DNA of 53,947 nt from a virus (taxonomy: Duplodnaviria; Caudoviricetes): positions 1-53,947 of the IMG/VR virus record IMGVR_UViG_3300031972_000800. One strand, written 5' to 3'. The first letter of the stretch is position 1. The number at the start of each line of letters is the position of its first letter. Under the pieces are notes generated by a model. It did no database searches. It was not told the DNA's origin and saw only the letters and a program-made list of their open reading frames with translations. Of this stretch, positions 9,937 through 51,963 are shown one piece after another. The translations under genes were made by a program, and so were the position numbers.

Positions 9937-11836
9937 AAAAGACAAGAAGACTGTGGATCTGGTTGCTCGCATGGAGCTAGGTGAAAACCTTGATCCGGAT
10001 TGGAACATTCCATCCGAGTACCCTGACCTGCGGGGCTACAAGTCTATCGCCGTGGATCTGGAAACGAGAGATCCAAACATTCAAACCTTGGGTCCGGGCT
10101 GGGCCCGCAACGATGGCAACATCGTGGGGATTGCAGTGGCTGCGGGGGATTACAAGGGATACTTTCCGATCCGCCACCAGAACGGGCACAATCTCGATCC
10201 GGACATGACCATGCGCTGGTTTAAAAAACAGATGGCAACTCCGGACATCCAGAAGGTTATGCACAACGCGACCTACGATGCGGGTTGGCTGCGGGCCGAG
10301 GGGGTCGAGGTGCAAGGAAAGCTAATCGATACGATGATTGCTGCGCCTCTGGTAAACGAGAACAGGTTTTCCTACAGCCTCAACAATCTGGGCCGTGATT
10401 ATATCGACATGCGCAAGGACGAGCGGATGCTGCGGGCTGCGGCCAAGGACTGGGGCATTGATCCCAAGGCGGACATGTGGAAGTTGCCGCCCAAGTTTGT
10501 TGGTGCGTATGCCGAGCAGGACGCTTTGATGACGCTTAAACTCTGGGAGTATCTTCAGATCGAACTCAGTAAGGATGAGCTCGGGCATATCTTCGAGCTT
10601 GAAACCAGCCTGATTCCTATGATGCTGGACATGCGAGCCAAGGGTGTGCGCGTGGATCTGGACAAAGCCGCTCGGGTTAAGAAGGATCTGGAAGGGAAAG
10701 CCAAGCAGGTCCACAAGAACATCAAAGACAAGACAGGCGTAGACATCCAGCCGTGGGCCTCGGCCTCAGTCCAGAAGATGTTCGAGGCGCTGAACCTGCA
10801 ATACCCAACAACGGATGCGGGCGCTCCGTCCTTTACCAAGCAGTATCTGTCCTCTCATCCGCATGAAATGTGCCAGCAACTGGTGCGCTTGCGTGAACTG
10901 GACAAGGCCAGTAGCACGTTTGTCGAAAGCATCCTGCGCCACGAGCACAAGGGCCGCATCCATTGTGAGTTCCACCAGCTTCGATCTGATGACGGGGGCA
11001 CTGTAACAGGGCGGTTCTCTTCTTCGAACCCCAACCTCCAGCAAATCCCGGCGCGAGATCCGGAGATCAAGGCTGCAATTCGTGGCTTGTTTATTCCAGA
11101 AGAGGGAGAGAAGTGGGGATCGTTTGACTACGCTAGTCAGGAGCCTCGGCTCTTGGTTCACTTTGCTGCGTCCATGCCTGACAATCTGCGCCACCCTATG
11201 GTCGATACGATTGTCGAAGAGTACCACAAGGGCGATGTCGATTTGCACCAGATGGTGGCAGACATGGCAGGAATCAGCCGCAAGGAAGCAAAGACCGTGA
11301 ACCTTGGGATTATGTACGGCATGGGGGTGGGCAAACTTGCCAACCAGCTATCGATTACAAACGACGAGGCCAAAGAATTATTGGAAACGCACCGCCAGAA
11401 GGTGCCGTTTGTCAAGCAGCTTGCCAGCATTGCTACGCAGCAGGGAAGCACGAAGGGTCAGATACGCACTCTGCTGGGCCGTAAGTGCAGGTTTCACCTG
11501 TGGGAGCCTAGATCGTTCGGGTACAACAAACCCCTGCCTCACGACCAAGCACAGGCGGAGTACGGTATGGGTATACGCAGGGCGTTTACATACAAGGCGC
11601 TGAACAAGTTGATCCAAGGATCCGCCGCCGATCAAACCAAGCAGGCCATGGCCGACTGCTACAAGGAAGGATTGCTTCCGCTGCTCACGGTGCATGACGA
11701 ACTCTGCTTTTCTATTGAGAGCGATGAGCAAGCTGCGAGGATCAAGGACATTATGGAAAACGGCCTGAACGATGTGCTGCTTGTTCCATCCAGAGTGGAT
11801 CAGGAGCTAGGAGATAACTGGGGCGAGGTGGGTTAA
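9923..11836 (+). CDS. polA: DNA polymerase family A with 3'-5' exonuclease
   Basis: Exo DLET, HNATYD, YAEQD; TGRFSSSNPNLQQIP; motif A DYASQEPR; motif B RKEAKTVNLGIMYG; motif C VHDE. Confidence 0.97.
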   Translation: MARDRKDKKTVDLVARMELGENLDPDWNIPSEYPDLRGYKSIAVDLETRDPNIQTLGPGWARNDGNIVGIAVAAGDYKGYFPIRHQNGHNLDPDMTMRWFKKQMATPDIQKVMHNATYDAGWLRAEGVEVQGKLIDTMIAAPLVNENRFSYSLNNLGRDYIDMRKDERMLRAAAKDWGIDPKADMWKLPPKFVGAYAEQDALMTLKLWEYLQIELSKDELGHIFELETSLIPMMLDMRAKGVRVDLDKAARVKKDLEGKAKQVHKNIKDKTGVDIQPWASASVQKMFEALNLQYPTTDAGAPSFTKQYLSSHPHEMCQQLVRLRELDKASSTFVESILRHEHKGRIHCEFHQLRSDDGGTVTGRFSSSNPNLQQIPARDPEIKAAIRGLFIPEEGEKWGSFDYASQEPRLLVHFAASMPDNLRHPMVDTIVEEYHKGDVDLHQMVADMAGISRKEAKTVNLGIMYGMGVGKLANQLSITNDEAKELLETHRQKVPFVKQLASIATQQGSTKGQIRTLLGRKCRFHLWEPRSFGYNKPLPHDQAQAEYGMGIRRAFTYKALNKLIQGSAADQTKQAMADCYKEGLLPLLTVHDELCFSIESDEQAARIKDIMENGLNDVLLVPSRVDQELGDNWGEVG

Positions 11837-14800
11837 TTTCCTGGTCCTTGCCTCTGCGCGATCTGCATGTTTTTCAACGCGTCTAATGGGTTAGAACCCA
11901 TTACTGCGGCTAAGAATCCTTGGTCCCTTGGTGGACTTTCCTGAACGAGGGGAGCAGGAGCAGGAGCAGGAGCAAGAACAGACTGAGGCGCAGGGGTTTC
12001 CACGATGGGCGCTGCTACCTCTGGCTCTGCTTCGCCTTGAAAAAAGTCTATCGCGGGCGCTGCTATTCTCGCTAATCGGCTATTCGCTTGATTAACTTCA
12101 GCTTCTCTTTGAAGTCTCTTGGTTTCTAGTCTTGCCGCTTCTTCTTCCGCGAAGTTCAACGGGGACAACTTTTCGCGTCTTCTGTCGTTTGACATTTGAT
12201 TTAGCGTTGACCATGGTCGTTGATTGACAAGAAACGTTTTGTCTTCGTTTCTCATCTCCCGTTTAGTTTCTTTAATGACTTCTTTAGATGCCAGACCGGG
12301 CCAAAACTCGCCTTTCATAATGGAGTTAAGCTCTGCCCCACCAAGATTTGCCTGCTTTAACTGTGCTCTAATAGCCGCCTCAGAGGTTTTCATTTCTCGT
12401 GCGGCCTCCACATAATAGTAAAGCTGGCTTTGCGCTCGATATAAATTATCAAGATAGCCGTTCCAAGATTCTAAAACATCTGCTTGAGTTGCATCAGCAC
12501 GTTTAATGGTCCGTGTAGCGAGGCCCTTGGCTGGGTTACGAAGAGAAGTGTACTCCGCGCCGCGGAAGGTAAAATCTGTTCGGTTGTTTACTACAATAGG
12601 AGTAAATCCTGTGGCGATTCGGGCAATTTCTTCTTCGTTTGTATACTGTTGTCCTCGGGTCCCAGGAATACCAAGTGCCGCTCTCGCCGCTCGGCCAAAC
12701 GTCAACTCTCCGCCGCGTTCCTCAACGACTAAACGAGCGTACCCCGGCAAATATGCTCCCAGAGTGTGTACGACAGATTTTTTCAACTGATCCCCAACGG
12801 GTTCCCCTTGGATATAAATAGGAGCCCCGGTTTCAGTCTTGCCGCCACGACCGATCCACGATTCAGGCAGAACATCTAAAAGTCTTTCCGCAAACAAAGA
12901 GGTTCCCGCAAAGGGCTCTGATAGTTTGGTAAGGCCCGCCCACATTCCGTTTGTGATTTGTGCGGCTGCCGTTTTATCCAACTCTCCCGTCTGATTAAAT
13001 TCTCGAATCGCAGCGATAGCAGGTTCTCGAACAAAACTATGCGGGAAGATGTAGCTTTGATTAAACAACTCCATCTTGCCACGCTTGTCGTTGCTCAATA
13101 CCCCGAGGTCACTACCGCTATAGAAGTCCGCTGCTTGTACTCGCGCCGCCGCCATCTCTTCTTCCGAGGTCCCAGTTGCGAGCATCGAGGCTTTGGTAAC
13201 AGCGTTGGGGGAAACGTTAGCAATAGCGACATAGGACAAGAGACGTTGAGAACCCATGCCTCGGACTTGTCGAGCGAACGCTCTTGCCGCTGCTTCGTCT
13301 CCTTTGAATGCTGCAATTAAGTTATCGTCTACTTGAAACGAGAGCTCGGTCAGACCTCGTTGAACAGTGTTGGCCGCATTCCTAATGTTTTCTGCGGCAA
13401 AAGATGTAAAGGCACCAAAGATTGGAACAGCGTCAATTTTTTTAACCAACTTACCCACGCGGGAATACACAGGCATCAAGTCTTTAACTGTGTCTCCAGC
13501 CAGTGTTAGTAAAAAGTTAGAGGGAGAATCGTCCAGAGCCAAAGAGCGAGAACGCTTTGCCAACCCTTGACTCATCATCGAGTCTTTAAACGCTTCAAAG
13601 TTAAAGTTCTTTGGCCGACCAACGTCCACACCAGCCTTGCCCAGTGCTGTCGCCATTTTGCCTTGCTCGGCAAACACGCCAAGGATTTTAAAGAAGCTAT
13701 CCGAGTTACCATAAAGACTTTCAAGCTGTCGCATAAACGGAATGATACGACTAAACCCATCAAACCCTGCTTGTAGACGGCCTCCAGCACTTAGGTCTTT
13801 CGACAGTTCTCTAAAGTCTCGTAACGCGCTGCTCACGAGGTTGGTATCCATGACCCCTAACGCGCCGAGTTCTTTTGTAAGTTTGTCAAGAGCATCATCG
13901 TTTAGACCTTCGACATTAGCCGACACAACTCTAAAGGCATCCACCACATCCCCGCGGTTGGGCAGCATACCACCCTGACCCAATGCGATCACGTTTCCAA
14001 AGATGTTTCGAATTTGCGAGGCCAGATTAGGAACGATGGTCATGCGCTGCGCCTGCCCTTTAAGAATGGCACCAGTCGCAAGAGCCGCGCCAAGGTCGTC
14101 GAGTTGCAACCTAGCGGGGGTTGTTAATGCCTCTGCCGCTGCGGGAGAAACATACATGTTGGTGATAGCCCCGAACGGACCCAACACAGATGGATCCCCC
14201 TCGACCTGGGACAATTGAACGTACCCGCGTTGTAGCAAGCCTTCGGTCAGTTGCGCCGTTTCATCAACAGCCTGCCCCGTTAGTCTGTCCGTTACTTCTT
14301 TACCCGTGTCGTCTACGGTTGCTTTAAACAGCAAGCCACCATAGCCAGAACCCGCAGTGTTTACGTTTTCGGCAAACGATTTAAATTGTCTCGCAGCGTC
14401 TTGCTCCGAAAGCCCCTTCGCCATCCTTTCGTCCAGAACCGCCCGAGCAGCGGCAAACGCGTCCCGAGCAGAACCAAACCGTTCCGCCGCAGTAATCGTA
14501 ACAGGATCACGCACAAGACCGGGAAGTTCCTTGTCCCCCGCCTGCAAACGCAACGCCGCGTTAGCATCTACCGCAACGTCATCCGCCATGTTTTTGTAAA
14601 ACCTAGACGCAGCATACGCATTCGCCGTGTCCGTTATCGTGTTATAAAACATGGTCTTAGGATCTCGGACCTCGCCCATAAGTTCTCGGACCGCACCGAG
14701 ATTATCTAACTCAGCGACCCGCTCGATAAAAATAGAATCATCTAACTGAATCCGCTGACCGGGCATAACCACTTGAGCGTTATTAGCTCTTTTCAACGCC

Positions 14801-16572
14801 TGTATGCGGTTGTTCAACGCCTGTTGAGGAGTTACCCCGTTGCCCACATCCAGCTTTAAATACCGAAGTAAACGCAATTCAGCAAACCGATCTATCTGAT
14901 CGTCTGTTAGCTTGGAAAAATCAACGTAACCTGTTGGAGTGCCGTCAGGTTTGGTGAACAAAGGAAGAGCTTCTTTATAGTCCGCAGGAAGAATTTGTTT
15001 TAAATCATCTGCTTTAACACCACCCGAAAACGAGGACCGAATATGAGCCTTCATTTCGTCCAACGCTTTTTTATAGGCTGGACTATTCGATTGCACATCC
15101 AGATTGTTGTAGAAGTTTTCTGCATCGTCATACATGGCAAAACGTCTGCGCAGATAAGTCTTCCCCGCGGCGTGACTATCTCGAATTTCTTTCAAGGCGT
15201 CTTCTAACGGCTTTACATCAGACGGAGCGTATTCCGACCGAGCTTTTATCCGTTGAATGGAGTCCTCTAAGTCCAAAGCAATCTCGTCTTGTATCCGTAG
15301 ATTTGCTTCTCGCATCGCTTCTACAGAACTTTTAATCTTTTCTTGTTTCCGTTTGCTAAAGTTTTTAGCAAATCCTTCAATGTCGCCTGTTTCAAACGCT
15401 TTTAAAAACTGCTCCCCAATTTCCTTGCGCTTTCTTTTGGACATCTTTGGAAGGTCCACCACACGAAACAACTGGTCTGTGGCGCTCTCATAATTCTGAA
15501 ACAGATTTACAGCCTTGCGCTTTGATTCGTTCATCGAACCCTCTGCGTCAAACATCTCTTCCACAAAACGACTATGAGCATTTCCAGTGGGCGAGAACCA
15601 CTGAGCAAACTTCTCTTTCACGGGTTCTTTCACGCTTCGTATAATCGGCGCTTTCCCCGCGATAGTAGTTGCTCGATCAAACACATCTAAAACCGAACGA
15701 GATAACAACGATGACGCTTCTGATACTCCCGGCACTGAGCCCACGGCCCGTGCTCCTGCGCCCAAAACGGGAATACCAACATCAAACGTAAGACTGGCAA
15801 GACTACCTTCAAACGCTCTACGGCCCTTGTTTTTTAAACGACCCATGGCAAGGTCTGTGCCCCCTAACTCTAACGTGTTTTCAGTCTTTAAAAACTCAGG
15901 AGCAGAATCAAACGAGTCGGAAATAGTGGGACGACCATCGGGCGTAACCAAAGCTTCGAAGCCGCCCGCGGCAAGCGCCGTGGTTCCTATTAACCCCGCT
16001 CTTGTTCCCACTAATTTTTTACCAGCGTCGGACTTACCAAACGAATCCGCCGCTTTAAAAAATTTACTTTTGGCTTGGGTTCGCGCTGCTCCTCGGGCGA
16101 CTTGATTTGCTCTGCCCAACCAACCTGCGATAGGAATAAACCCTAGACCGAAACCCACAATCTCCTCGGTAATCTGACCGCCCGTGGTGCGAGGATTGAG
16201 GTCGTTGTCTTTACGAAACTTCTCGAATGAATCTGATACTCCACGAGAATACTCAGTTCCAAAAGCTAGATCCGCGGCCAATGCTCCGCTTTCCACCAAG
16301 CCTTGAGCTATCATTACAGGCGCAGCTTTAATACCCCGTCCTATGTCTGTGAGTTTAGACTCTTCGTAGGGGGCCATCAGCCCCTTGGCTTGATCAGCTA
16401 ACCTATTGCCTGTGTCATCATCCCCAGCGTCGTAGGCAGCAATAGCAGCAGACTTTAACTCATCGAACTCAAGAACATCTCGGGCTTGATCTGCCAGCAT
16501 GTTTCCGGTTTCGTCATCCCCAGCGTCGTAGGCAGCAATAGCAGCAGACTTTAACTCGTTGTATGTTGGCAT
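11833..16572 (-). CDS. large internal virion/ejection protein (1579 aa)
   Basis: Last and largest gene of the late operon; Ala/Gly-rich and helical; position typical of podovirus ejection proteins. Confidence 0.75.
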   Translation of the reverse strand: MPTYNELKSAAIAAYDAGDDETGNMLADQARDVLEFDELKSAAIAAYDAGDDDTGNRLADQAKGLMAPYEESKLTDIGRGIKAAPVMIAQGLVESGALAADLAFGTEYSRGVSDSFEKFRKDNDLNPRTTGGQITEEIVGFGLGFIPIAGWLGRANQVARGAARTQAKSKFFKAADSFGKSDAGKKLVGTRAGLIGTTALAAGGFEALVTPDGRPTISDSFDSAPEFLKTENTLELGGTDLAMGRLKNKGRRAFEGSLASLTFDVGIPVLGAGARAVGSVPGVSEASSLLSRSVLDVFDRATTIAGKAPIIRSVKEPVKEKFAQWFSPTGNAHSRFVEEMFDAEGSMNESKRKAVNLFQNYESATDQLFRVVDLPKMSKRKRKEIGEQFLKAFETGDIEGFAKNFSKRKQEKIKSSVEAMREANLRIQDEIALDLEDSIQRIKARSEYAPSDVKPLEDALKEIRDSHAAGKTYLRRRFAMYDDAENFYNNLDVQSNSPAYKKALDEMKAHIRSSFSGGVKADDLKQILPADYKEALPLFTKPDGTPTGYVDFSKLTDDQIDRFAELRLLRYLKLDVGNGVTPQQALNNRIQALKRANNAQVVMPGQRIQLDDSIFIERVAELDNLGAVRELMGEVRDPKTMFYNTITDTANAYAASRFYKNMADDVAVDANAALRLQAGDKELPGLVRDPVTITAAERFGSARDAFAAARAVLDERMAKGLSEQDAARQFKSFAENVNTAGSGYGGLLFKATVDDTGKEVTDRLTGQAVDETAQLTEGLLQRGYVQLSQVEGDPSVLGPFGAITNMYVSPAAAEALTTPARLQLDDLGAALATGAILKGQAQRMTIVPNLASQIRNIFGNVIALGQGGMLPNRGDVVDAFRVVSANVEGLNDDALDKLTKELGALGVMDTNLVSSALRDFRELSKDLSAGGRLQAGFDGFSRIIPFMRQLESLYGNSDSFFKILGVFAEQGKMATALGKAGVDVGRPKNFNFEAFKDSMMSQGLAKRSRSLALDDSPSNFLLTLAGDTVKDLMPVYSRVGKLVKKIDAVPIFGAFTSFAAENIRNAANTVQRGLTELSFQVDDNLIAAFKGDEAAARAFARQVRGMGSQRLLSYVAIANVSPNAVTKASMLATGTSEEEMAAARVQAADFYSGSDLGVLSNDKRGKMELFNQSYIFPHSFVREPAIAAIREFNQTGELDKTAAAQITNGMWAGLTKLSEPFAGTSLFAERLLDVLPESWIGRGGKTETGAPIYIQGEPVGDQLKKSVVHTLGAYLPGYARLVVEERGGELTFGRAARAALGIPGTRGQQYTNEEEIARIATGFTPIVVNNRTDFTFRGAEYTSLRNPAKGLATRTIKRADATQADVLESWNGYLDNLYRAQSQLYYYVEAAREMKTSEAAIRAQLKQANLGGAELNSIMKGEFWPGLASKEVIKETKREMRNEDKTFLVNQRPWSTLNQMSNDRRREKLSPLNFAEEEAARLETKRLQREAEVNQANSRLARIAAPAIDFFQGEAEPEVAAPIVETPAPQSVLAPAPAPAPLVQESPPRDQGFLAAVMGSNPLDALKNMQIAQRQGPGN
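16418..16557. repeat. 44-nt identical direct repeat (96-nt period) at the start of the ejection protein
   Basis: TCATCCCCAGCGTCGTAGGCAGCAATAGCAGCAGACTTTAACTC at 16418 and 16514; encodes ELKSAAIAAYDAGDD twice. Confidence 0.95.
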
Positions 16573-30961: not shown

Positions 30962-31579
30962 TTAAGAAGCTACGTCATAGCCAGTGATTGTAATAACTAA
31001 TCTACCCGCTGTATAAGTAGCATCGGTTGTTGCCCCAGCGGTTAAGTAAAGATACTGATCCGCCGCAATATCGCCACCAGCAACTAGACTACCCGCTGCT
31101 AAATCACCTGAGTTGATAATCAAAGTCTCAGTTAAATCAGAAATAGGAGTATCCTCCACACCTGTAGCTTCAGTAGCAGAATGCAGGTTAATATCTGGAT
31201 CACCACCCGCTGGAGTCTCAAGGCACATCATAGTAACGCCGAACACCGTACCTTGGTTTGCCGTTGTAACGCGACCAATGTAAGCAACACCCGAACCGTC
31301 TTTACCAATGATGTCCCCAGCCGCAGTCGAGCGCAAACCAGTAAGGTCAATCAAAATAGTGGTTTTTACGATATTGACGTTTGTTGAAGTATCGCTTTTG
31401 AACCGCTCTACTTGTGTAACGTATACAGCCGCAGTTCCTTCGATGCCAGCACCGCCAGCAGCTTCAGTCGCCATTTTCGATCCGCTGGTAATCGTAATTT
31501 CACCAGTAGTCGCATTTTTAGATACAGTTTCAAAACCGTTTTCAGAACGCACTGGTCCTGAGAAAGTTGTATTAGCCAT
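30962..31579 (-). CDS. virion structural protein (post-capsid gene)
   Basis: MANTTFSGPVRSENGF N-terminus; AGGAG RBS before ATG 31579. Confidence 0.72.
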   Translation of the reverse strand: MANTTFSGPVRSENGFETVSKNATTGEITITSGSKMATEAAGGAGIEGTAAVYVTQVERFKSDTSTNVNIVKTTILIDLTGLRSTAAGDIIGKDGSGVAYIGRVTTANQGTVFGVTMMCLETPAGGDPDINLHSATEATGVEDTPISDLTETLIINSGDLAAGSLVAGGDIAADQYLYLTAGATTDATYTAGRLVITITGYDVAS

Positions 31580-31584
31580 GAAGA

Positions 31585-31632
31585 TCTCCTGTCTTGGCAA
31601 ATGTCAGCCGCACCGTGCGGCTGTCAGGGATA
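31585..31632 (-). ncRNA. structured element downstream of the capsid gene (Mu-gpT-DE-like candidate)
   Basis: Minus strand CCTGAC-AGCCGCA-CGG-TGCGGCT-GAC-ATTTGCC-AAGA-CAGG: an inner hairpin closed by CCTG/CAGG that overlaps the RBS. Confidence 0.5.
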
Positions 31633-31732: not shown

Positions 31733-32644
31733 TTACGCTCCGGGTGAACCGAATACTGCGCGTGGGTCGCTGAAGCCAAAGCTGTAGCGTTCACGAGCTT
31801 TAAAGCGCATGTTGCCAGTGTCGAAATCGGCTTCCATGTTTGTAGACAATGGAGTCCGTTCGAAGTGAACAAAGCCACGAGGCGCATCTGTTTTAATGAA
31901 AAACGCGTCAGGATCTGTCAGGAAATCATTGACGGCGTAACCGTCAGGTAACATCCCCATAGACCGGATAGCGTTTGTATCATTATCAGCAGTGCCAACG
32001 CGAAGGTTTGAAACCATCAAACGCTCTGCAACGAATTGCAGTTGACGCGGAATCATCAGTTTCATGCCACGAAGGGCAACCTTCAAACCACGCTCGTCAA
32101 CAAAACCTGCGATATTGATAAGGGCATCTTCAAGAGATGTCTCGTTCAAATCCGCAGCAGTTGATGGTTCGTTAGCAAATGTTCCACCGTTGGTTAACGG
32201 GTGGTCCGTCGCACAAAGCGCAACACCATCACCGCCAGCAGTCGCGCCAGCAGTAAATGCGTTGTTAAGAACCGCAGCGGCCTTAACTTGCTTTGTGTGT
32301 GCCATAGAACGAGCCAACGCACGAGTGTAACGCGAACCAAGACGATCATACAGATTGTCTTCGATAGCTTCCTCAGTAATAGAGAACGCTAGTGCGATAG
32401 TTTCGTGGTTGTAACGAGCAGTGTACGCCTCGTTAGCGTCGTCAAAGTTTACAGCAGAACCTTCCGATTTGGTTGGTGCCGCTCCGAACCCACTCAACAT
32501 AACTTCCTCTTCGAATGCTCGATCAGAAGATTCTGTTGTGTAGATCTCCGCGTGTTGGTTTTCGTACCTGTCGTACTCCATACCAAACAGCGCGTTGAGG
32601 CCCGGTTCTAGCTCTTTCGCTAGTTGTGCGCGAGAAATAGCCAT
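31733..32644 (-). CDS. major capsid protein (Mu gpT-like, HK97 fold)
   Basis: MAISRAQLAKELEPGLNALFG, ITEEAIEDNLY, RERYSFGFSDPR; strong GGAGG RBS; followed by a terminator. Confidence 0.9.
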   Translation of the reverse strand: MAISRAQLAKELEPGLNALFGMEYDRYENQHAEIYTTESSDRAFEEEVMLSGFGAAPTKSEGSAVNFDDANEAYTARYNHETIALAFSITEEAIEDNLYDRLGSRYTRALARSMAHTKQVKAAAVLNNAFTAGATAGGDGVALCATDHPLTNGGTFANEPSTAADLNETSLEDALINIAGFVDERGLKVALRGMKLMIPRQLQFVAERLMVSNLRVGTADNDTNAIRSMGMLPDGYAVNDFLTDPDAFFIKTDAPRGFVHFERTPLSTNMEADFDTGNMRFKARERYSFGFSDPRAVFGSPGA

Positions 32645-38304: not shown

Positions 38305-40790
38305 TACTGAGTCCTCCGTATCATCGCCTCTCGTTGGACGTTAATACGATCACGGTTAACCTCGTTACGATCATCCGCAATCTGCTCTTGTAACTCTAAC
38401 CGAGCAGAATCAGCAGTGGCCTGTTGAGCCATCTTCGCCTGCTCTAGCTGCAACTTCATCTGATCCAACTGCGCGTCACTCGCTACTTGTTGCTGTTTAA
38501 TCGCCAACTCTTGCTGACGGATCTGAACAAGAGGATCAGGCATCGGAGGCATCGGAGGCTGAATCATCATCATAACTTGCTGCATCAACTGAGTTTCCAT
38601 TTGAGCTATTTGAGCCTCTATCTGCTCAGGAGGAGGAGCCATTTGCTGAATCTGCATTATTTGCTGCTGCGCCATCTGAGGAGAAATAGCTCCCGTTTGA
38701 ACCGCCAACTCTAGTTGCTGCATCTGCTCCTGCATCTGCTGCTCAACCTGCGACTGCACCATTTGTCTGGCCTGCATACCCACATGCTCAAATATATGCC
38801 CCACAAGTGTAGCCGATACCTGCGGGTTGCCTTGAGCAATAGGCATCTGCAAAAACGTAACGTGAACCTGAATATGAGCCTCATGATTCTGATCAGGGAA
38901 AGATTGCGGCAACTGACCGCCAAGCAACTGAGCATTCTCCAACACAGGATCCGTAGGTTGAGGCTCCGGTGGCGGAGGTAAAATCTCATCAATGTTCTGG
39001 ATTTCCAGAGCCTGATACATTCTACGATACGCCTGATAAATGTTGTGAATCTCAGGATTAGCCTGCGCTAACTGCAATTGAGACTGCGCTAACGATACAC
39101 GTTGCGCCATCGAGAAAATGTTTGGATCCGATACAGGTATAACATCTACCCTGTCGTCAAAGTCCTCCGCTTTAATCTGACGAGACGCACCCGAAACATC
39201 ATACGGATACTCCGGAGGCAAGTTCTCCGAAAAAATACGCGCCAACAAACGAAACTCCGTTTTCTGCGCATAATGCAGCCGCTTGTGAATCGCGGACATA
39301 ACCTTCGTTCCACGCTCCATAAGAGCCATGGTAGTGCCAACAGGCATCTCCTGACTGCCCTGCTCAGACAACTGATCCGCAGTCGAAATAAACCTGCGAC
39401 CCTGATCCTGTATCGCTCCCAGCAACTGACCCAGCGTTGCAGAAGGCTCTTTGTACGGCAGCGGTATAATCGCTTCCCGTATGCTGCCTCCTGGCGCATC
39501 AATGTCCCGCCATTCCCCAGGCTGCAACGGCTCGTCGTCATTACGAACCCGCACCCCTCGCGCCTTGAATCCTGCTGGGAGATTGGCAAGTGTACCAGCA
39601 TCGATCAACTGTCGAAGGATACTCGTTGCCGCACGACCAAGGCCCCCGATCATGTGAATCAAACCAAAGCCGTAAAAGCCCAGACCCGGCATAAACTTGT
39701 AATGCACAAAATACTGACGCTTGCGACTCGTCGGATCGTCTTCAGCATAATTGCGGCGTATCGAAAGAACCTCTCCCGAGTCGTGATCTATAGTCACAAC
39801 ATACGGAAGCTTCAAACCCGTAGGCTCTCCAGTCTCCGAAACGTCCTCAAAACCCTCTAAATCCAAATCAACGTGCATCTCCAAAACAGTATGCACATCA
39901 TCGCTGTAATTCTTGGATATACCCTCTAACTCATTCACCTTCTGGCGAACCGGATCTTCCTCAAGATCCTCAGAACCTTTTAACTCAACATCACGGTAAA
40001 AACCCATAAGCTGCAACTTACGAATCTCGTTCTCATCCATACGCAACACATGCGTAACACGAGTAGCCGTCGCCAAATCAGACGCAGAATACGGAACAAC
40101 CAAATCTTGCGCAGGTACAAACTTAGATACCGCCCGCTGCTTAGTCTCGTCGTAATAAACCTTCTTAAACGTCGAACCGCTCAAGGGTAAATAAAACAAC
40201 ATCTGATCAGTGTCCGGATCAAACTCCTCCATCACCTCAGTGATCTGGTAGTTCATAAAGTCCTTAACACGAGCCGCCTGCTCATCAGTGCCCAAATCCC
40301 GTAAACCAACAACCTTGGTCTTTACAGGGCCACCAGAGGGCAACATCTCCTTATACGCTTGAGCCTGAAACTGCGTAACACTCTCCGCAATCATCGGATT
40401 GGTTATCCCACTAGCCCCCTCAAACGGTACAGTGCGCTCCTCGTATTTAAGACCCAATAAGTCCAAACCCTTGGTATACGCCTCTTCCCACTCAGATCGA
40501 GAATCTAAATCCTCGTCGTATAATCCCCGCAAATCCGTGGATAATTCACCAAGTTCGGAATCCGACAACGCCTCCGCTAAATTCATCGTGTGGTCATACA
40601 TCGGCTCTGGGCCCAACATTTCCGGAGCCAAACCAAGAGCCTGCACAACAGCGCCACCCACACCATCGTCCATAATCTCTGCCCCGTTAGGAAACTCCAT
40701 AGGAACATCAATCGGAATCTCTAAATCAGGAAGTCCCGCCGTATCATCGAGGTCCAACCCCGGTGCAACCATGCTTGGTGGTAATGCCAT
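38304..40790 (-). CDS. portal protein
   Basis: Directly after terL; 828 aa with P22-like portal features and a Gln-rich C-terminal coiled-coil barrel. Confidence 0.88.
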
Positions 40791-42256
40791 CAGTAATACT
40801 CCCTTTTACGGGGCCTCCATTCAAGTTCGTCTTCTTCTTCGCCCTTCAAAGAAACAAAGCCTCCTTGTCGGAATCGCATCAGTGCTAACGTCATACTATC
40901 ACAAAAGTCATCATGATCACCATTAGGAAATGAAACTACTTCCTCAATCACCTCATCCGTAAACTTTTTGTCCTCAGGTGCCCATACCATACCAGCTTCA
41001 AATAATGGCGCAACCATGTGCATCCTAGTTACCTTATCACTCCCTTTACCCGGCGAAAAGCCCAAGGCCGGAATACCGCGAAGCCGCAACTCGTCAATAA
41101 GTGGCATTCCCGTCGCTTTCGCTTCGACCAACACCATGTCTGGCTCCCAGTATTCGTGTTCTTCATACGCAATCTCCTTGAGCTCTGGAAAATTCCAACG
41201 CCCACGACGAGCGTCCAATAATACAATGTTGTCCGAACCACCCTCTTCCGGAGTAAATATCCCCCAGGTCGTAATCGCACTGTAATCCGCAGTCTGCTTC
41301 TTCGAAAACGCCGTGTCATACGACTGAATTATATACTGAACCGGAGGAATCTCCTCCTTCTCCCACATCTGCCACCATTCCCGCTTAATAATCGCGGACT
41401 CAGATGTGGTAGGCTGCTGCTGCCACTGCGCATTCCACTTGCCAACAGGCAAAGACGCCTTAATCGATAATAACGCGTCCTTTTCCCAAAATTCAGGCCA
41501 TAAAGGATTATCACTAGGCATAATCGCAGGAAATTCCACAACTTCCCACTGATCCGACATCACATCACTGCCCTGCGCAGCAAGCAATCGACCAGTCAAA
41601 TCCTTCTTACCCCACCGGGTCATAACCAAAATAATCGCACCACCCGGCTGTAACCGCTGCCGAGGACCAGATGTGTACCACTCATACGCGTTGTCAAACG
41701 CACTATCGCTTAACGCATCCTGTTCCGAATGAGGGTCGTCAATAATAAGTAAATCCGCACCACGGCCCGTAATGGCCGCGCCAACACCCGCTGCAAAATA
41801 CTCCGCACCCTTGTCAGTGCCCCACTTACCAGCCCCCTTGTTGTCCTCTTTGAGATTAGTCTCCGGAAAAATCGATTTATACTCTGGATCATCAATTAAA
41901 TCCCTTACCTTCCTACCAAAACGTACCGCCAACTCAGTATTGTGCGTAGCCTGAATGATTTTTAATTTCGGATTTCTACCTAGAAACCAAGCAGGCATCA
42001 AGTAACTTGCAAACTCAGACTTCGAATGTCGAGGGGGCATGTTAATTATAAGCCGCTTGAGCTCCCCTCGTGCAACACGTTCAAGCTTTTCCGCAATAAT
42101 CCGGTGATGACGACCCTCGATAAAGTTGTCATACACATGATGAACAAACGGCATGAACTTTTCTTGCGCCTGCTCGCGCAAATCAAGCGTCTTCTTAGCC
42201 TCGGTTAAGGCTAAAATCTCCTTTAAAGCCTCTTCCGGTAAGGCCTGTAAACTCAT
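40790..42256 (-). CDS. terL: terminase large subunit
   Basis: MPPRHSKS Walker A, LLIIDDP Walker B, YDTA nuclease motif, HDDFCDS. Confidence 0.95.
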   Translation of the reverse strand: MSLQALPEEALKEILALTEAKKTLDLREQAQEKFMPFVHHVYDNFIEGRHHRIIAEKLERVARGELKRLIINMPPRHSKSEFASYLMPAWFLGRNPKLKIIQATHNTELAVRFGRKVRDLIDDPEYKSIFPETNLKEDNKGAGKWGTDKGAEYFAAGVGAAITGRGADLLIIDDPHSEQDALSDSAFDNAYEWYTSGPRQRLQPGGAIILVMTRWGKKDLTGRLLAAQGSDVMSDQWEVVEFPAIMPSDNPLWPEFWEKDALLSIKASLPVGKWNAQWQQQPTTSESAIIKREWWQMWEKEEIPPVQYIIQSYDTAFSKKQTADYSAITTWGIFTPEEGGSDNIVLLDARRGRWNFPELKEIAYEEHEYWEPDMVLVEAKATGMPLIDELRLRGIPALGFSPGKGSDKVTRMHMVAPLFEAGMVWAPEDKKFTDEVIEEVVSFPNGDHDDFCDSMTLALMRFRQGGFVSLKGEEEDELEWRPRKREYY

Positions 42257-45671: not shown

Positions 45672-47990
45672 TCCAAGGCCCGTGAACCGAGGATCACGAA
45701 CCATACCCCCATTACGAAACGCAGAAATCCCCGTCTCCCGTAAGGCACGAAGAAAGTTTTCAGTAATCTCGAACCCCGGAACCTCGTGGTAAAAATAGTC
45801 GTCATCGTACCTGTCCCGACCAGCAATGGTTACATTGCCCAACTTCGGCATCTCTAAACCACTGTCCTTCTCTAACTTCGCTAAAATATTCTTAACACGA
45901 CTCGGAACAATCTTATCATAATATTCCCGCTGACCAGACAAATCACCCATCGTCATATCATAAGCCATGTCCCCAGTGCCCAACGTGAAAAACTCCAAAC
46001 CCTCGTTACTCGGTAAAGCAATCTGATCAAAAGCACTCTTAATCGCCATGTCCGTAACACGATTCGTCTTAAATAACTTCCCTAAACCAACATCCTCCGG
46101 AACCTGATACCCCGACTTATACTGAAGATCCGATAAAATACTCGCAGCACGACGCTTCTTGAAACTAGGATTCAAACCATCAAACACTTTTGATAGTTCT
46201 TTCCGCGATGCAGCATCAATATCTGGAAAAACACTTAGTACACCGTCTTGCTCAAAATACTTCTTCTTAACATCCGGTGATAACTGATCAAAAAACTCCA
46301 GCAATACATCACCACGAGCATCACCAACCGACTCCACACTGTTTAACGTCTCCAACATACCCGTCGGTAATGAATCCAAAACATTCCGAGCCTGTACCGC
46401 AGATCGAGAACGCTGCGTAATGTCCGACTGAATCTCCCCCAAATGAAACGATGAAGTACCCTCCAACCCACCATCCTTAGCCACAGGAAACACAGCAGAA
46501 CGATAATGTACAACAGGAACCCCGCTCACCGAACCAAAATGCTCGTCAGCACCCGGCAAACCCCGCGCACCATCATCAAAATTCTGGTTTAACGTTAATA
46601 CCGTCTCCTGATAATCACTCCCGCCCGGAGTGAAATACTGAGGATAAGCAACCCGATCCCCCTTTAAAACATTCACAGCAACCGGATCTTCAACTAACTG
46701 ATCAAAAACCTCATCCAAACTAACCCCGTCAGGAAAACGATTGCGAAGATCCTTCGTCGCTAAACCACGAGCTTCCAACTCCGCGGGCTTTACACCACGG
46801 TTCTCCAACGTCTTCACAAACTGATCAACAGAACCAAACTTCTGTTTCGGAAAATTAGGCAAAACAGGGTCTAAACTATCCCGCAATACCGAATCCTCAA
46901 ACAAACCAAACCGAAAACCCGTCCGATCAAAAGGATTTGTGTCACTAACATTTGCAAAAGGATCCAACGCACCACCCGGAGCAGTAGGCGGCGTATTGTT
47001 CTCCCGAGTAACACTCACCACAAAACCATAGTCCGGATTAAAATAATCATTAATAATCTCAGCTGAAACACCAGCATCTTCCGCTATCCGACGAGCCACC
47101 CTAACCCGGTCCTCAATGTCAATCGTCATTTCACCAAAACGAGCGTCAGCCATACTCATGTCCGGAGAAAACGCCGAAAGTAAATCGTCCTCAAACTCAC
47201 TAGCACCCATAATGTTGGGCAAACCATCCGTCCGCAACTGACGCAATAACGGCTGTAATATATCCATGTCCACAAATCGAGTGCCCGTATCAACATCAGT
47301 CGCCGTCACCGGATCAATTCGAGTAGTAACGGCTAGCTCAACCTGATTCTCGTCCGGTAAAAACTCTTCAGGACGTAAAACAACCTCCATAGTGGCCTCG
47401 TCAGGTCCAATAAACGGATCCATGCCAAACGAATCATCAATAGGAGGTTCAAGATAATCTATCAACGCCATCTCTTCAGTTTGATCGGAACGATCAAATT
47501 CACGATTTAAATAATCGTAATAATCGTTTTCAATCTCATCAGGCATTTGATAGTCAGCTTCAGGAAATTCAAAAGGTGCAAGGGCCTCATCAACATCAAC
47601 AGAAACATCAATCCGAGGCTCCTGCAAAGCCTGCTCCTGCAAAGCCAATAACTCATCTTCCGAATTAGCACGAGCCAACGCCTCCAACTGAGCCTCCGCA
47701 TCAGGGCCCGGACTCAAACCAAACATCTCCATTAAAGCTGCCTTGGCTGGCTGCTTTAAAACTCGACCAGCACCCAAAGTTAAAGCAGGGATTAACGTCT
47801 CTAATCCAGCCTCGATCCGATCTTCTGGCTTCTCGCCCGCCGTGCCAATGCGCCCAGCCGCCTCCATACCACGACGAAGACCCGTCGTCGGAACCAAATT
47901 AGAAACGTCATCCGCTCCAACCGACTGAAACAACGGACGAAGGCCCGGGGGAATATATTGCGTGATCGGTAAAGAAAATCTATCGGCCAT
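45648..47990 (-). CDS. large acidic virion/ejected protein with a polyvalent-protein-type domain
   Basis: GVKPAEL, TPGGSDYQETVL, HF, HYR and GEIQSD motifs resemble a domain recurrent in large phage ejected proteins. First gene of the late operon. Confidence 0.65.
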   Translation of the reverse strand: MADRFSLPITQYIPPGLRPLFQSVGADDVSNLVPTTGLRRGMEAAGRIGTAGEKPEDRIEAGLETLIPALTLGAGRVLKQPAKAALMEMFGLSPGPDAEAQLEALARANSEDELLALQEQALQEPRIDVSVDVDEALAPFEFPEADYQMPDEIENDYYDYLNREFDRSDQTEEMALIDYLEPPIDDSFGMDPFIGPDEATMEVVLRPEEFLPDENQVELAVTTRIDPVTATDVDTGTRFVDMDILQPLLRQLRTDGLPNIMGASEFEDDLLSAFSPDMSMADARFGEMTIDIEDRVRVARRIAEDAGVSAEIINDYFNPDYGFVVSVTRENNTPPTAPGGALDPFANVSDTNPFDRTGFRFGLFEDSVLRDSLDPVLPNFPKQKFGSVDQFVKTLENRGVKPAELEARGLATKDLRNRFPDGVSLDEVFDQLVEDPVAVNVLKGDRVAYPQYFTPGGSDYQETVLTLNQNFDDGARGLPGADEHFGSVSGVPVVHYRSAVFPVAKDGGLEGTSSFHLGEIQSDITQRSRSAVQARNVLDSLPTGMLETLNSVESVGDARGDVLLEFFDQLSPDVKKKYFEQDGVLSVFPDIDAASRKELSKVFDGLNPSFKKRRAASILSDLQYKSGYQVPEDVGLGKLFKTNRVTDMAIKSAFDQIALPSNEGLEFFTLGTGDMAYDMTMGDLSGQREYYDKIVPSRVKNILAKLEKDSGLEMPKLGNVTIAGRDRYDDDYFYHEVPGFEITENFLRALRETGISAFRNGGMVRDPRFTGLGSLKREYL

Positions 47991-48228
47991 CGGTTCTCTC
48001 AATAAAACTCAAATGAAATTATACCCGAAATAATTTAAAAGGGATAGGGGCCTCAAAGGCGGGATTCCCTATAGGGGGAAAACCCGAATGGAATTATTCT
48101 CGAATGAATTTACAAGACCAACATTATACAGACACCAGACGCACCGCACCGCCCAAAACGGGGGGATGGGGGTCGCAAGAGTCCCGATCCGTGCACCCAG
48201 ATTTGCCAAAGTAACCCCTAACAACGTA

Positions 48229-48274
48229 GAGTCGCCTGTTAACCTCGCAAGCTCGGGGCGACGAGAAGAAAAGA
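48229..48274. repeat. hairpin repeat, copy 1
   Basis: GAGTCGCCTGTTAACCTCGCAAGCTCGGGGCGACGAGAAGAAAAGA; second copy at 50950. Confidence 0.92.
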
Positions 48275-49013
48275 CAACGGGCCTTCAGCCCGTGCGGTAT
48301 CCGAACCGCAATCGGCCAACGGCTATAGCCCCGTTGGATCAGGCACTTAGAAACAGAGGAACCGTACCGATATGCGCTCTGACCCGCGCCCGATCTATCT
48401 CCACTGTACGGCGATGGCGCACTGCGCCGGGAACATCCTTCAGATGTTCTCACGCCTTGTGCACATCGTCGTGCAGCGGAGCCTCTTGAGATCGGTCAGT
48501 CGGATCAGGTGCGCCAGCTATACACACACACATTTTGAATGATACCTCTGGTGTGCCCTTCGTATTTATGCGTCGTCAACCCCATCACGTTTATTGTGTC
48601 CTTGCGGACTCATTCTTTTTGATGGGGTCGGAAGGTCACGGTGGACGTTAGGTCATTTGTATTGGACGTAACGTAACCTTGAGGCCCCAACAGATCTCTT
48701 TTGCTCTGGCGGACTTGCGGGCCGTAGTGTCCTCGTCCGGTGAGCAAATATGAGAGGTCAGTCTCAAGTTTACGAAACGTCAAATCCAAAGGACCTTACG
48801 TCAACCGGGACTACCCGAGCGGGGGCGCTCGGCTTCCTTGACCATTCCCTCAACCCAAACAGGAATCAACGGAAAAAAGAATTCCGGGCAACCCTTCTCC
48901 AAGCGTGCTCCGGGCCGCCCGGAATCCTTTTTGCATTTAAACTCTGTTAGGGATCTCGGCGCGATAAATTCAAATTGCAAACCGTAGGCATCATCACAAA
49001 TGTGTGGTGTGTA
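48231..49013 (+). ncRNA. candidate large structured non-coding RNA or leader
   Basis: More than 10 helices found by eye, including long-range closing stems and a 47-bp rod. G-T pairs favour the + strand. No credible CDS. Confidence 0.65.
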
Positions 49014-49036
49014 ACTCAAATATAGGAAATATCAAC

Positions 49037-49468
49037 ATGGATATCACAGTACTCAGATTGTCAGACGAAGTAAGCGAAATCAACCGGGCTCTGCGCCTCC
49101 TCAACTACGACTGGACAGACTTCGACTGTCAGATCCAAGGTGACGGGACAGGGTTCGACGCACAGCGCGTATGGTTCAAGCTCTACTATCGCGGGCTACC
49201 AACAGGCGACAGCAAGTCAGAAACATGGACGTTCAACTTCGACGGCCAGTACAACCTGCAAGACAACCTGCATCAAGTCACCGAAGCTATCTTGGACTTC
49301 ATTCAGAACCTTCCAACAGGCGACACGCTCAAGCAGCAACACATGGTTCGACTCTTCGAACAAGGTGGTCGCCTAGCCGAAGAGCTCGGGATCGACGAGG
49401 ATTTCATCAACCCGCTGGTCGGGATCATGGAAAAGTTGGCAACCAATGCCATCACTCATCGCAAGTAA
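49037..49468 (+). CDS. early hypothetical protein
   Basis: AGGA RBS before ATG 49037; first gene after the non-coding region. Confidence 0.75.
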   Translation: MDITVLRLSDEVSEINRALRLLNYDWTDFDCQIQGDGTGFDAQRVWFKLYYRGLPTGDSKSETWTFNFDGQYNLQDNLHQVTEAILDFIQNLPTGDTLKQQHMVRLFEQGGRLAEELGIDEDFINPLVGIMEKLATNAITHRK

Positions 49469-50929: not shown

Positions 50930-50949
50930 TCATCAAAAAGTTTTAAAAG

Positions 50950-50996
50950 GAGTTGCCTGTTAACCTCGCAAGCTCGGGGCAACAAAGAAGAAAAGA
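50950..50996. repeat. hairpin repeat, copy 2
   Basis: GAGTTGCCTGTTAACCTCGCAAGCTCGGGGCAACAAAGAAGAAAAGA. Confidence 0.92.
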
Positions 50997-51069
50997 GTTA
51001 TTGTGTCCTTCGGACTCTCTATCCTAGTTCCCATCCCCGGCAAGCCCGGGCCGGGAACCCGCCGCGCCA

Positions 51070-51150
51070 GAGTCGCAAGGCTCAGGCGCGAGCCGCAAGG
51101 CATAATATCAGCGGCAGCAGAGCCGCAAGGCCTCGAATAGAGACGCAAGG
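51070..51150. repeat. four phased 11-mers GAGNCGCAAGG
   Basis: Copies start at 51070, 51090, 51120 and 51140. Confidence 0.9.
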
Positions 51151-51497
51151 TCCTCGAAACTCTGCCCCTCAGCCCCCTCAATCCCCTTTTCAAGGAGCTC
51201 GGGCCCCTTATCTCCCCCAAATAAATATATCCTCTTGGTAGAGAGGGCCTTTACCAAGTAAAAATTATTGCCCCCGCGAGCCCAATACGCCATATTCCAC
51301 GCAATTTGATGCGGAGATATTTTTGGTTTGTTGTTTTTGACTGCTTTGAGCTCCGCCCAAAAAGAAATACCATCCCAGATTGCATGAACATCCGGTACAC
51401 CACCGCCATGCCTGTTTTCTATGCGGGTTGCGAAGCATTTTTCAGGCAGATTTTTCCTGATCGTGCTCCAAAAGTTGGACTCCGGTCCTCTGCTCAT
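51108..51497 (-). CDS. VRR-NUC/PD-(D/E)xK nuclease (Holliday-junction resolvase-like)
   Basis: E...RIEN...GVPD...WAELK...HQIAW. Confidence 0.8.
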   Translation of the reverse strand: MSRGPESNFWSTIRKNLPEKCFATRIENRHGGGVPDVHAIWDGISFWAELKAVKNNKPKISPHQIAWNMAYWARGGNNFYLVKALSTKRIYLFGGDKGPELLEKGIEGAEGQSFEDLASLFEALRLCCR

Positions 51498-51963
51498 CCG
51501 TTATATCCTCATATGATCCCTCGATTGTGAATGCTTGAGGGTATTTCTTTTGTAAATCCGACAGCCGAGCCACAATTTCATCGCGGGATAGCTGATCTAT
51601 CTGGTTGATATTCTCTCGTCTATCCACAGTCAAACCACCCAGAGCCGAGCGAATTTTTTCTGCGTTGATGGCCGCTGAAAACTGGCCCGCGTCCTCCGCG
51701 CCTTCGGAAAGTTGTTTCAGCCGCTGAAGCTGTCCAATGGTTGTCACCCCGTAAAGCCGTTCTCGCTCCTCCCTGAGCTCCTTTATGTATTCGAGCACAT
51801 GCGGATAGTCTCTGCCGTTTAACAGCACTGCTGCGCGCTCGTTTGCGAGATCAGCAGCATATCCTGCCTTCCTCGCGCATTCCGTATTCGAGTAGATCCC
51901 CTCGACAATGTGCCGAGCGAAAGTTTTCTGTCGATTTGTCAGTTTCTGGATTTTCCCAGCCAT
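51442..51963 (-). CDS. terS: terminase small subunit
   Basis: LTNRQKTFA...TECARKAGYA...V.EYI HTH pattern; GGAGG RBS. Confidence 0.8.
   Translation of the reverse strand: MAGKIQKLTNRQKTFARHIVEGIYSNTECARKAGYAADLANERAAVLLNGRDYPHVLEYIKELREERERLYGVTTIGQLQRLKQLSEGAEDAGQFSAAINAEKIRSALGGLTVDRRENINQIDQLSRDEIVARLSDLQKKYPQAFTIEGSYEDITDEQRTGVQLLEHDQEKSA

Follow-up and report, generated by a model that had tools for sequence, protein, structure and literature searches.

Among the described systems that come closest to the locus considered here are the RNase III hairpins of phage T7 (e.g., R0.3, upstream of gene 0.3), which are about 50–60 nt long and contain one asymmetric internal loop, and RNA-OUT of IS10, a 70-nt antisense RNA whose stem carries mismatches that protect it from RNase III. 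Palindromic origins located between divergent genes, with sites on both arms, are represented by oriL and oriS of herpesviruses and by the origin of SV40. The long imperfect hairpin described below is called the rod.

The whole stretch of DNA that was analysed, referred to as the window, comprises the 53,947 bases of a virus record that is classed as linear, with a completeness of about 94%. Its large terminase is 54–61% identical to those of the Pelagibacter phages HTVC027P and HTVC023P, of phage 023Pt_psg01, and of phage DSL-LC04, and the window represents an uncultured marine podophage, kin of the HTVC023P-type pelagiphages. In the cultured or named relatives 023Pt_psg01 and DSL-LC04 the gene order differs upstream of the large terminase. 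The group is abundant in aquatic metagenomes: there are at least 600 large-terminase matches in IMG/VR, from which 80 loci, 87–92% identical, were kept. The family scan of the window revealed a primase, helicases, and a family A polymerase, all phage-encoded, while ARAGORN gave no tRNA and no tmRNA gene. The rod is located in a 1035-bp gap, 48003–49036, separating divergent operons. The gap is regarded as noncoding since its reading frames lack any family match and the variant contigs differ from the window within it by insertions and deletions of 1 and 2 bases. The surrounding genes that matter for what follows are:

48002 down to 11833, minus strand: operon for a 784-aa protein, an SLT-domain protein, large terminase, portal, capsid, and tail proteins
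From 49037, plus strand: short block of small, hypervariable genes without annotated function (reading-frame family scan)
51442–51963: small terminase gene, 2.6 kb from the rod
561–965: homologue of an XRE-like repressor (family scan)

The rod itself is composed of the following parts:

48628–48683, no strand assigned: 5' arm, from the repeat finder (48639–48685 in the preliminary description)
48763–48818, no strand assigned: 3' arm, from the repeat finder (48761–48807 in the preliminary description)
48686–48760, no strand assigned: distal part, the imperfectly paired interior and apical loop, from the folds

The arms delimited by the repeat finder are 56 nt each, 79% complementary, and 79 nt apart; the interior pairs as well, so that one imperfect hairpin of about 190 bases results. 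The preliminary description, made from the bare sequence, had aligned 48639–48685 with 48761–48807 without gaps, and the ungapped comparison reproduced this pairing exactly. All the mismatches that it listed, at arm positions 5, 11, 17, 22, 26, 32–33, and 39, with a wobble at 46, were found again: the non-Watson–Crick positions are 48643, 48649, 48655, 48660, 48664, 48670, 48671, and 48677, and the G.T wobble is at 48684. Its rod of about 170 nt with a paired interior stands as regards the interior, but the rod is somewhat longer (48628–48818). Watson–Crick pairs occupy 38 of the 47 positions of the arm as originally drawn, and the longest run is 6, in line with the claim that no perfect helix exceeds about 6–8 bp; with nine non-Watson–Crick sites placed at random in 47 positions, a longest run of at most 6 was obtained at P = 0.006 (100,000 draws, a post hoc comparison). 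Repeat finding and folding, the einverted/RNAfold type of check, both recover the rod, and it folds far better than shuffled sequences on either strand: 206 nt of the plus strand, taken as RNA, gave −92 kcal/mol (z = −6.0) and the minus strand −83.5 kcal/mol (z = −7.5), values equalled by 0 of 200 shuffles in each case. The ungapped palindrome scan of all 53,947 bases yielded no second palindrome scoring at least 18.

Each arm contains two copies, 21 bases apart, of a 13-base dyad motif, KKAC-N5-GTMA, a quasi-palindrome related to TGACG-N3-CGTCA. The copies start at 48643, 48664, 48770, and 48791, with spacings of 21, 106, and 21:

48643–48655, no strand assigned: copy S1, paired with S4; mismatched at its first, centre, and last bases
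48664–48676, no strand assigned: copy S2, starting 21 nt after S1 and paired with S3; mismatched at its first base (48664), at its centre (48670–48671), and one base past its end (48677)
48770–48782, no strand assigned: copy S3 (motif scan)
48791–48803, no strand assigned: copy S4; its first two bases are GG, TT, or TG among the close homologues

The extra mismatch at 48660 falls in the spacer. The strict motif pattern has four matches in the window, all inside the rod; with the looser pattern a fifth appears outside it, at 23466. Partner copies share the same plus-strand centre base (T and T, A and A), for which reason the motif centre cannot pair, and because the mismatches sit at fixed places of the motif, their period of about 6 is half the motif length. 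The even spacing of the mismatches is the anatomy of a 13-base dyad present twice per arm, and there is no free-standing periodicity. The preliminary description had taken the even spacing as a sign of selection for an imperfect rod, possibly one that evades RNase III, dsRNA sensors, or SbcCD; the mismatches are indeed non-random and conserved, but the spacing follows from the dyad.

A dyad arranged in this way is reminiscent of a protein-binding site in duplex DNA, and the locus might be an operator array in which four 13-bp dyads bind a dimeric helix-turn-helix regulator, of the phage or of the host, controlling the divergent units, the hairpin being a by-product of symmetry. Such an arrangement is considered unlikely, although it accounts for the quasi-palindromic form and for the 20–22-bp centre-to-centre spacing, which corresponds to about two B-DNA turns. 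In bacteria, TGACG-N3-CGTCA dyads repeated in tandem with this spacing are an ordinary form of operator: the scan of bacterial genomes for tandem dyads returned generic operator-like sites across many phyla, adjoining TetR genes at five loci and MerR genes at five (Pfam, 103 flanking frames at 80 loci), and showed no link to this phage or its host. The phage also encodes the XRE-like repressor homologue at 561–965. Under the strict pattern, however, the motif is missing from the rest of the window, the repressor gene region included (the looser pattern adds 23466), and an identical plus-strand centre base in both partners would be meaningless to a symmetric dimer on duplex DNA.

The arrangement of the motifs, 2 + 2 around a centre of about 100 bp, also resembles the pac site of phage P1, and the small terminase gene is only 2.6 kb away. 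A packaging site read by the small terminase subunit, with motif clusters flanking the cleavage region, is nevertheless hardly probable at all. The site lies neither in nor beside the terminase gene, and three contigs with rods of one and the same type (type C, see below), 95–99% identical, encode small terminases only 65–76% identical to one another; since the terminases diverge among nearly identical rods, no covariation links the small terminase to the rod. Neither would packaging explain the covariation of the helices P0 and P1 presented below.

Comparison with the relatives places the rod in a broader context. Eight IMG/VR contigs share the rod of the window and together with it make up nine sequences of type A, with a mean column identity of 97%. 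Between two fixed blocks at least 25 distinct cassettes were distinguished, belonging to at least seven unrelated or barely related sequence types, A–G, of which type A is that of the window and type G that of locus L008; thus rods of unrelated sequence occupy the same site in the relatives. All of the folded distinct cassettes (17/17) are closed by the helix P1, types A–E as a single long rod and type F in a more branched form. The mismatch positions, which the preliminary description proposed to compare across homologues, are kept in all nine type A sequences, and the unrelated rods are interrupted too; neither of the two outcomes that it had set against its own reading, homologues lacking the rod and random decay of a once-perfect duplication, was found. 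The type A arms differ little, and none of the differences is compensatory. The pairs 48654/48792 and 48655/48791 occur as three haplotypes with exactly one mismatch each (C-G with A.G; C.T with A-T; A.G with A-T), and T48669A, present in three of the nine sequences, disrupts a rod pair. Most of the flanking 100-nt bins are 93–100% identical between the window and its closest relative, so the 98–99% identity of the type A rods is not special.

The dyad motif occurs in six of the seven cassette types, in two or four copies spaced by 20–22 nt; in type D there are only two, in tandem, and type F is the one without the motif. The central mismatch is present in all ten paired motif copies (A.A in seven, T.T in two, C.T in one), a count that includes the related types B, C, and E and hence fewer independent cases. 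In every sequence of types B–E, position 4 of one copy faces A, which makes a C.A on the plus strand. Eleven representative rods contain 37–79 pairs, with the longest Watson–Crick run of 5–13 bp. Retention of the motif together with its central mismatch shows, at the level of sequence comparison, that the folded form is probably read in a sequence-specific manner. The operator array is favoured by type D, with its two tandem copies only, and by T48669A, which breaks a rod pair yet equalises the centres of S2 and S3; the shared centre base that a duplex reader would ignore is found in 10 of 10 pairs.

The same variability is what might be expected if the palindrome were selfish or neutral, a MITE- or REPIN-like insertion or a decaying inverted duplication devoid of function: the cassettes are exchangeable and unrelated in sequence within fixed flanks, and L008 has a quite different intergenic region beside a first gene that is 90% identical. 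Such an origin is very improbable. The rod is present in a single copy in the window, the intergenic region matched none of 50,697 phage records in a blastn search, and the test for MITE, REPIN, or REP elements failed accordingly, the rod being the only palindrome of the window that scores at least 18 and having no match in the phage collection. No target-site duplication was seen at the flanks, the mismatches are fixed and not scattered, and pairing is maintained by compensatory change. Furthermore, at eight type C loci a core of 212 nt is 95–99% identical in pairwise comparisons, far above its surroundings, since the medians for the 300-nt flanks are 74% and 65%; the first downstream gene at these loci is entirely different.

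The rod is only one part of a closed domain that spans 48564–48969 in the window and about 300 nt in the relatives without the hairpin I3 (about 300–410 nt overall). Its elements follow one another in the order P0, an invariant single-stranded joiner, Pa, P1 with the rod, an invariant joiner (CCTTGACSATTCCCTC...CTCGG), and, finally, the strand that closes P0. These elements and the neighbouring hairpins are:

48564–48575, plus strand: 5' strand of P0; 48564–48569 variable and covarying, 48570–48575 invariant GCGTCG
48569–48585: 17-nt anchor overlapping the 5' strand of P0, 60 nt upstream of the rod, exact in 26 IMG/VR contigs
48579–48628, plus strand: hairpin Pa (ACCCCATCA / TGATGGGGT) with a small inner hairpin, between P0 and the rod (MFE)
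48630–48634, plus strand: 5' strand of P1, GGAAG, the closing helix of the rod arm
48815–48832, plus strand: small G+C-rich hairpin, CCGAGCG-GGGG-CGCTCGG, between the rod and the 3' strand of P1, in type A only
48833–48837, plus strand: 3' strand of P1, CTTCC
48836–48851, plus strand: conserved 3' framework block of 16 nt, CCTTGACSATTCCCTC, common to the relatives
48854–48952, no strand assigned: hairpin I3, an insertion within the domain in five of the nine type A sequences (the window, L006, L007, L009, and L010)
48909–48923, plus strand: terminator-like site in I3, followed by a T run
48957–48969, plus strand: 3' strand of P0; invariant CGGCGC at 48957–48962, a bulged G, covarying ATAAAT at 48964–48969
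48277–48293 (H1), 48295–48308 (H2), and 48316–48337 (H3), no strand assigned: upstream hairpins, H1 and H2 with compensatory changes

I3 is self-contained and its insertion leaves P0 undisturbed. The hairpins H1–H3 are part of the same hairpin-rich noncoding region as the rod. Minimum free energy folding recovered P0, Pa, and the P1–rod arm both in the domain of the window (423 nt, z = −6.8) and in a type C domain (311 nt, z = −4.7), with 0 of 100 shuffles reaching the value in either case.

The helices of the domain are maintained while their sequences change. Among 22 distinct cassettes P1 occurs in four fully complementary versions, GGGAG/CTCCC, GGAAG/CTTCC, GGCGG/CCGCC, and GGAGA/TCTCC. 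P0 joins the 8–9 bases before the invariant GCGTCG with the 8–9 bases after the invariant CTCGGCGCG downstream of the rod, and is found in seven different complementary versions of 8–9 bp (that of type B read by eye); within type C, a compensatory change from A-U to G-C has occurred in locus L106. Pairing extends to the invariant halves of P0, GCGUCG and CGGCGC, which as the plus strand include one U.G. In 12 rod sequences belonging to types B, C, and E, double-sided changes affect 17 of 51 predicted pairs, compared with 5.4 ± 1.7 in shuffles, 0 of 500 of which reach 17, and 0–6 with slid partners, though these rods represent three lineages only and hence few independent events. Similarly, 11 sequences of the 362 nt upstream show double-sided changes in 14 of 58 pairs, against 5.2 ± 1.5 in shuffles (0/500) and 1–4 with slid partners, and the folding energy of this region is far lower than that of length-matched coding controls (−144/−151 vs. 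a mean of −83/−109 kcal/mol). Helices kept by compensatory substitution, the general mark of a structured domain, are thus present in P0, P1, the rods, and the upstream hairpins. Because the compensatory changes extend to P0, P1, and the parts of the rod outside the motif, they demonstrate self-folding of one strand; covariation as such fits any folded single strand, RNA or otherwise.

These data weigh on the operator array from two sides. Both invariant blocks hold an outward-pointing TTGACGA half-site, as could be expected of operators. On the other hand, complementarity reaches past the dyads, compensatory change, for which an array of operators on duplex DNA would have no need, is found in the motif-free P0, P1, and distal stems (17/51 rod pairs), and P0 and P1 persist in type F, which has no dyad.

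The domain is not universal in the group, since several relatives share with the window only the 48081–48222 part of the gap, without the palindrome; these are L061, L066, L072, L075, and L086, relatives by large terminase with sufficient upstream DNA, in which no palindrome scoring at least 14 was found. The metagenome scan with the 3' framework pattern assigned to the family three of 118 loci (L221, L299, and L325), the rest being chance matches, and the viral scan gave 17 family-like instances among the 88 matches L120–L207.

Two observations favour the plus strand as the one that folds: the invariant U.G of P0 would be C.A on the minus strand, and little separates the domain from the hairpin and ribosome-binding site of the first plus-strand gene: in the relatives the distance from the domain end to the hairpin beside the ribosome-binding site is about 16–20 nt, too short for a promoter to fit. 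The wobble record elsewhere is mixed between the strands; at P1 position 9, for instance, the plus strand has G.T in seven distinct cassettes and A.C in two. The rods of types B–E fold better as the minus strand, by 4–25 kcal/mol, as do the upstream segments (11/11; consensus fold −56.6 for minus vs. −47.8 for plus). Coding controls show the same minus bias, with a mean difference of −25 ± 14, and because this bias comes from composition, folding energy cannot decide the strand.

A hairpin kept on both strands, as the mixed G.T/A.C record would allow, could also be a replication origin or a single-stranded DNA signal, i.e., a palindrome in which both arms carry initiator sites and which folds once unwound. 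The motif clusters at a single place in the genome, the phage encodes a primase, helicases, and a family A polymerase of its own, and the position between divergent operons recalls, by analogy, herpesvirus oriL/oriS and SV40. The probability of an origin is nonetheless judged low. Mismatches at about 20% of positions would make cruciform extrusion from duplex DNA very unfavourable, the centre lacks an A+T-rich unwinding element, no initiator protein covarying with the rod type was found, and several short flanking hairpins show compensatory changes, the usual signature of RNA. GC skew gave no origin signal that could be separated from gene orientation.

As regards transcription, 12 of the 23 listed runs are recorded as RNA, and contigs were taken from four metatranscriptome runs of four studies. 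Metatranscriptome contigs span the rod (e.g., 48372–49048 and 48422–48821) and the flanking genes alike; these contigs carry no information on strand, ends, or level and are compatible with DNA carry-over. The promoter scan (−35/−10 with 16–18-bp spacing) revealed no sigma-70 promoter in or on the rod. The sequence TTGTCC-N17-TTTAAT, present on both sides of the rod, was considered as a pair of convergent promoters and rejected, the covarying inverted repeats in question being P0 and its outer extension. The terminator test identified three terminator-like sites in 47900–49150, the rod not being among them: 48293–48277 (minus), 48909–48923 (plus), and 47947–47934 (minus).

Taken together, and with moderate confidence, the rod can be considered the exchangeable long arm of a closed multi-helix domain, most likely in the plus-strand leader RNA of the hypervariable genes that begin at 49037. 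The RNA reading is preferred because many small covarying hairpins nearby resemble structured RNAs. Here we infer four things: the RNA nature, the plus strand, the binding of a protein, and the process regulated. The rod carries 2 + 2 copies of the 13-nt dyad about two helical turns apart, and on folding each pair of copies yields a pair of 5-bp helices that are separated by a central mismatch, 1x1 or 2x2, and have non-Watson–Crick ends. The copy pairs may serve as docking modules for a sequence-specific, probably dimeric, protein, which once docked might control the expression or stability of the downstream early hypervariable genes. The built-in mismatches would keep the rod free of long perfect duplex.

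It is also worth considering a more speculative and rather doubtful extension, according to which the whole hairpin-rich gap (about 0.6–1 kb; 48231–48969) would be one large phage noncoding RNA. The exchangeable rod would be its specificity arm, the phased dyad modules with their obligatory central mismatch would dock a dimeric protein, and a swap of the rod would change the partner. If so, the RNA would fall in the size class of OLE, ROOL, and GOLLD and could serve to switch between the early, hypervariable genes and the structural operon of 36 kb.

None of the known families examined includes the rod. At gathering scores, the sole Rfam 15 match in the whole window is Mu-gpT-DE at 31577–31629, and of the six weak matches obtained in 47900–49100 at E up to 10 none is on the rod; 6S RNA, IMES, GOLLD, ROOL, and HEARO are among the families checked that do not match it. 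Mimicry of the 6S RNA kind, suggested in the preliminary description, is not borne out, as the rod lacks a central bubble and matches no Rfam model, even with E relaxed to 10. The test for an integron attC site was negative: no integrase match was obtained in the 50 scanned reading frames, the window has one rod, and the R''/L''–L'/R' core sites were not found as a set by eye. A protelomerase target (telRL) is likewise contradicted by the rod centre, an imperfect stem with an apical loop, and no protelomerase gene match was obtained. No description of the rod or the domain was found in the literature searched, which included passages of PMC9599517.

The domain is therefore a structured noncoding domain of a known general kind, without an Rfam family, unusual in having an exchangeable arm whose mismatches are conserved and whose sequence is not. 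Its two joiners are invariant, its two closing helices covary, and its long arm can be swapped; the whole lies directly before the most variable genes of the genome. The arm constitutes a natural experiment, in which sequences unrelated to one another agree in architecture, in the 13-nt motif, and in its central mismatch, so that the reason for a deliberately imperfect long helix becomes directly testable, and it may help to identify the putative protein reading the motif.

The leader hairpins of T7 are similar in several respects: they are long imperfect hairpins with internal loops, placed in the noncoding leader just ahead of the first early gene in a podophage dependent on host functions. 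The arm described here differs in its length of 130–210 nt, in its repeated 13-nt dyad, and in its location inside a closed multi-helix domain. With IS10 RNA-OUT the rod shares a stable structure in which interruptions keep each perfect helix short; RNA-OUT is an antisense RNA of 70 nt. 6S RNA (RF00013) is also a rod of about 180–200 nt with many small interruptions, but the rod of the phage has no large central bubble and belongs to a larger domain.

In integron attC sites, too, the structure is kept and the sequence is not, the imperfect palindrome has conserved unpaired bases and adjoins exchangeable gene cassettes, and the site acts as a folded single strand, as the rod presumably does; in the phage, however, there is one site per genome, and attC has no counterpart to P0 and the joiners. 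The single-stranded DNA promoters of the leading regions of plasmids (Frpo/ssi) resemble the rod in being long imperfect hairpins upstream of the early variable genes of a mobile element, whereas in the rod no −35/−10 pair is rebuilt in the stem (by eye and by the promoter scan) and the genome is double-stranded phage DNA. Finally, the tandem dyad operators of TetR and MerR regulators share with the rod the 13-bp dyad and the two-turn spacing, but in these operators, as in the viral origins, the duplex is the active form, whereas in the phage domain the helices outside the motif covary and the centres of the folded sites are mismatched.

Within the 1035-bp noncoding gap (48003-49036) separating the minus-strand structural operon from the plus-strand gene block, the CA-repeat tract ACACACACACA (48524-48538), located directly 5' of the folded domain that carries the rod, is kept in all cassette types, i.e., in all the sequence types occurring between the two fixed framework blocks. 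Another block of the gap, at 48103-48130, is conserved across several cassette types and contains, on the minus strand, a perfect or near-perfect TATAAT (48123-48128) ~125 nt 5' of the gene encoding a 784-aa protein; no recognisable -35 accompanies this TATAAT. The block may function as the structural operon's promoter. Two terminator-like hairpins of opposite strands are found only in the lineage of type A, the cassette type of the window:

48293-48277, minus strand: terminator-like hairpin with a T run, on one side of the structured region
48909-48923, plus strand: terminator-like hairpin with a T run, on the other side, inside the inserted hairpin I3

The listed start of the 784-aa frame is the TTG at 48002; the ATG at 47990, four codons into the frame, follows a purine-rich stretch and seems the likelier start. 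At the opposite border of the gap, the first gene 3' of the conserved domain (49037 onward in the window; loci L095-L117) is hypervariable, with at least eight unrelated N-termini present among different contigs behind a near-identical framework and ribosome-binding site.

The gap contains, at 48231-48275, a hairpin of the form GTCGCC...GGCGAC with an A-rich run behind it; a second copy lies past the plus-strand gene block, at 50948-51010. The stem of the second copy differs from that of the first by a compensatory change of C-G to T-A, and a short piece of the gap (48591-48609) also recurs adjoining it. In relatives, the second copy is likewise present, ~2.4 kb 3' of the first gene.

Five minus-strand genes located 5' of the large terminase gene, the noncoding gap and the block of plus-strand genes lie in the ~9 kb between the two terminase genes of the window:

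40790-42256: large terminase gene
51442-51963: small terminase gene
51108-51497: gene of a Hjc/VRR-NUC-like nuclease, overlapping the end of the small terminase gene

In the structural operon, the Mu-gpT-DE RNA motif was matched over its full Rfam length at 31577-31629 on the minus strand (72.1 bits vs. the gathering score of 49), immediately 3' of the major head protein gene (31733-32644). The terminal part of the operon comprises three large reading frames:

11833-16572, minus strand: 1579 aa
16578-18482, minus strand: 634 aa
18498-19706, minus strand: 402 aa

None of the three has a PHROG function, and the PHROG match of the 1579-aa protein is limited to a 30-residue N-terminal piece.

Tandem TGACG-N3-CGTCA dyads, to which the 13-base dyad of the rod is related, are also widespread in bacterial genome contigs (loci L328-L407), where they are spaced 7-9 bp apart and occur in many phyla, Streptomyces and Kitasatospora being notable among the genera that carry them. 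They adjoin TetR genes at five loci and MerR genes at five. Many of the bacterial dyad pairs have inverted centres and therefore form perfect palindromes of 33-35 bp, in which they differ from the phage rods.
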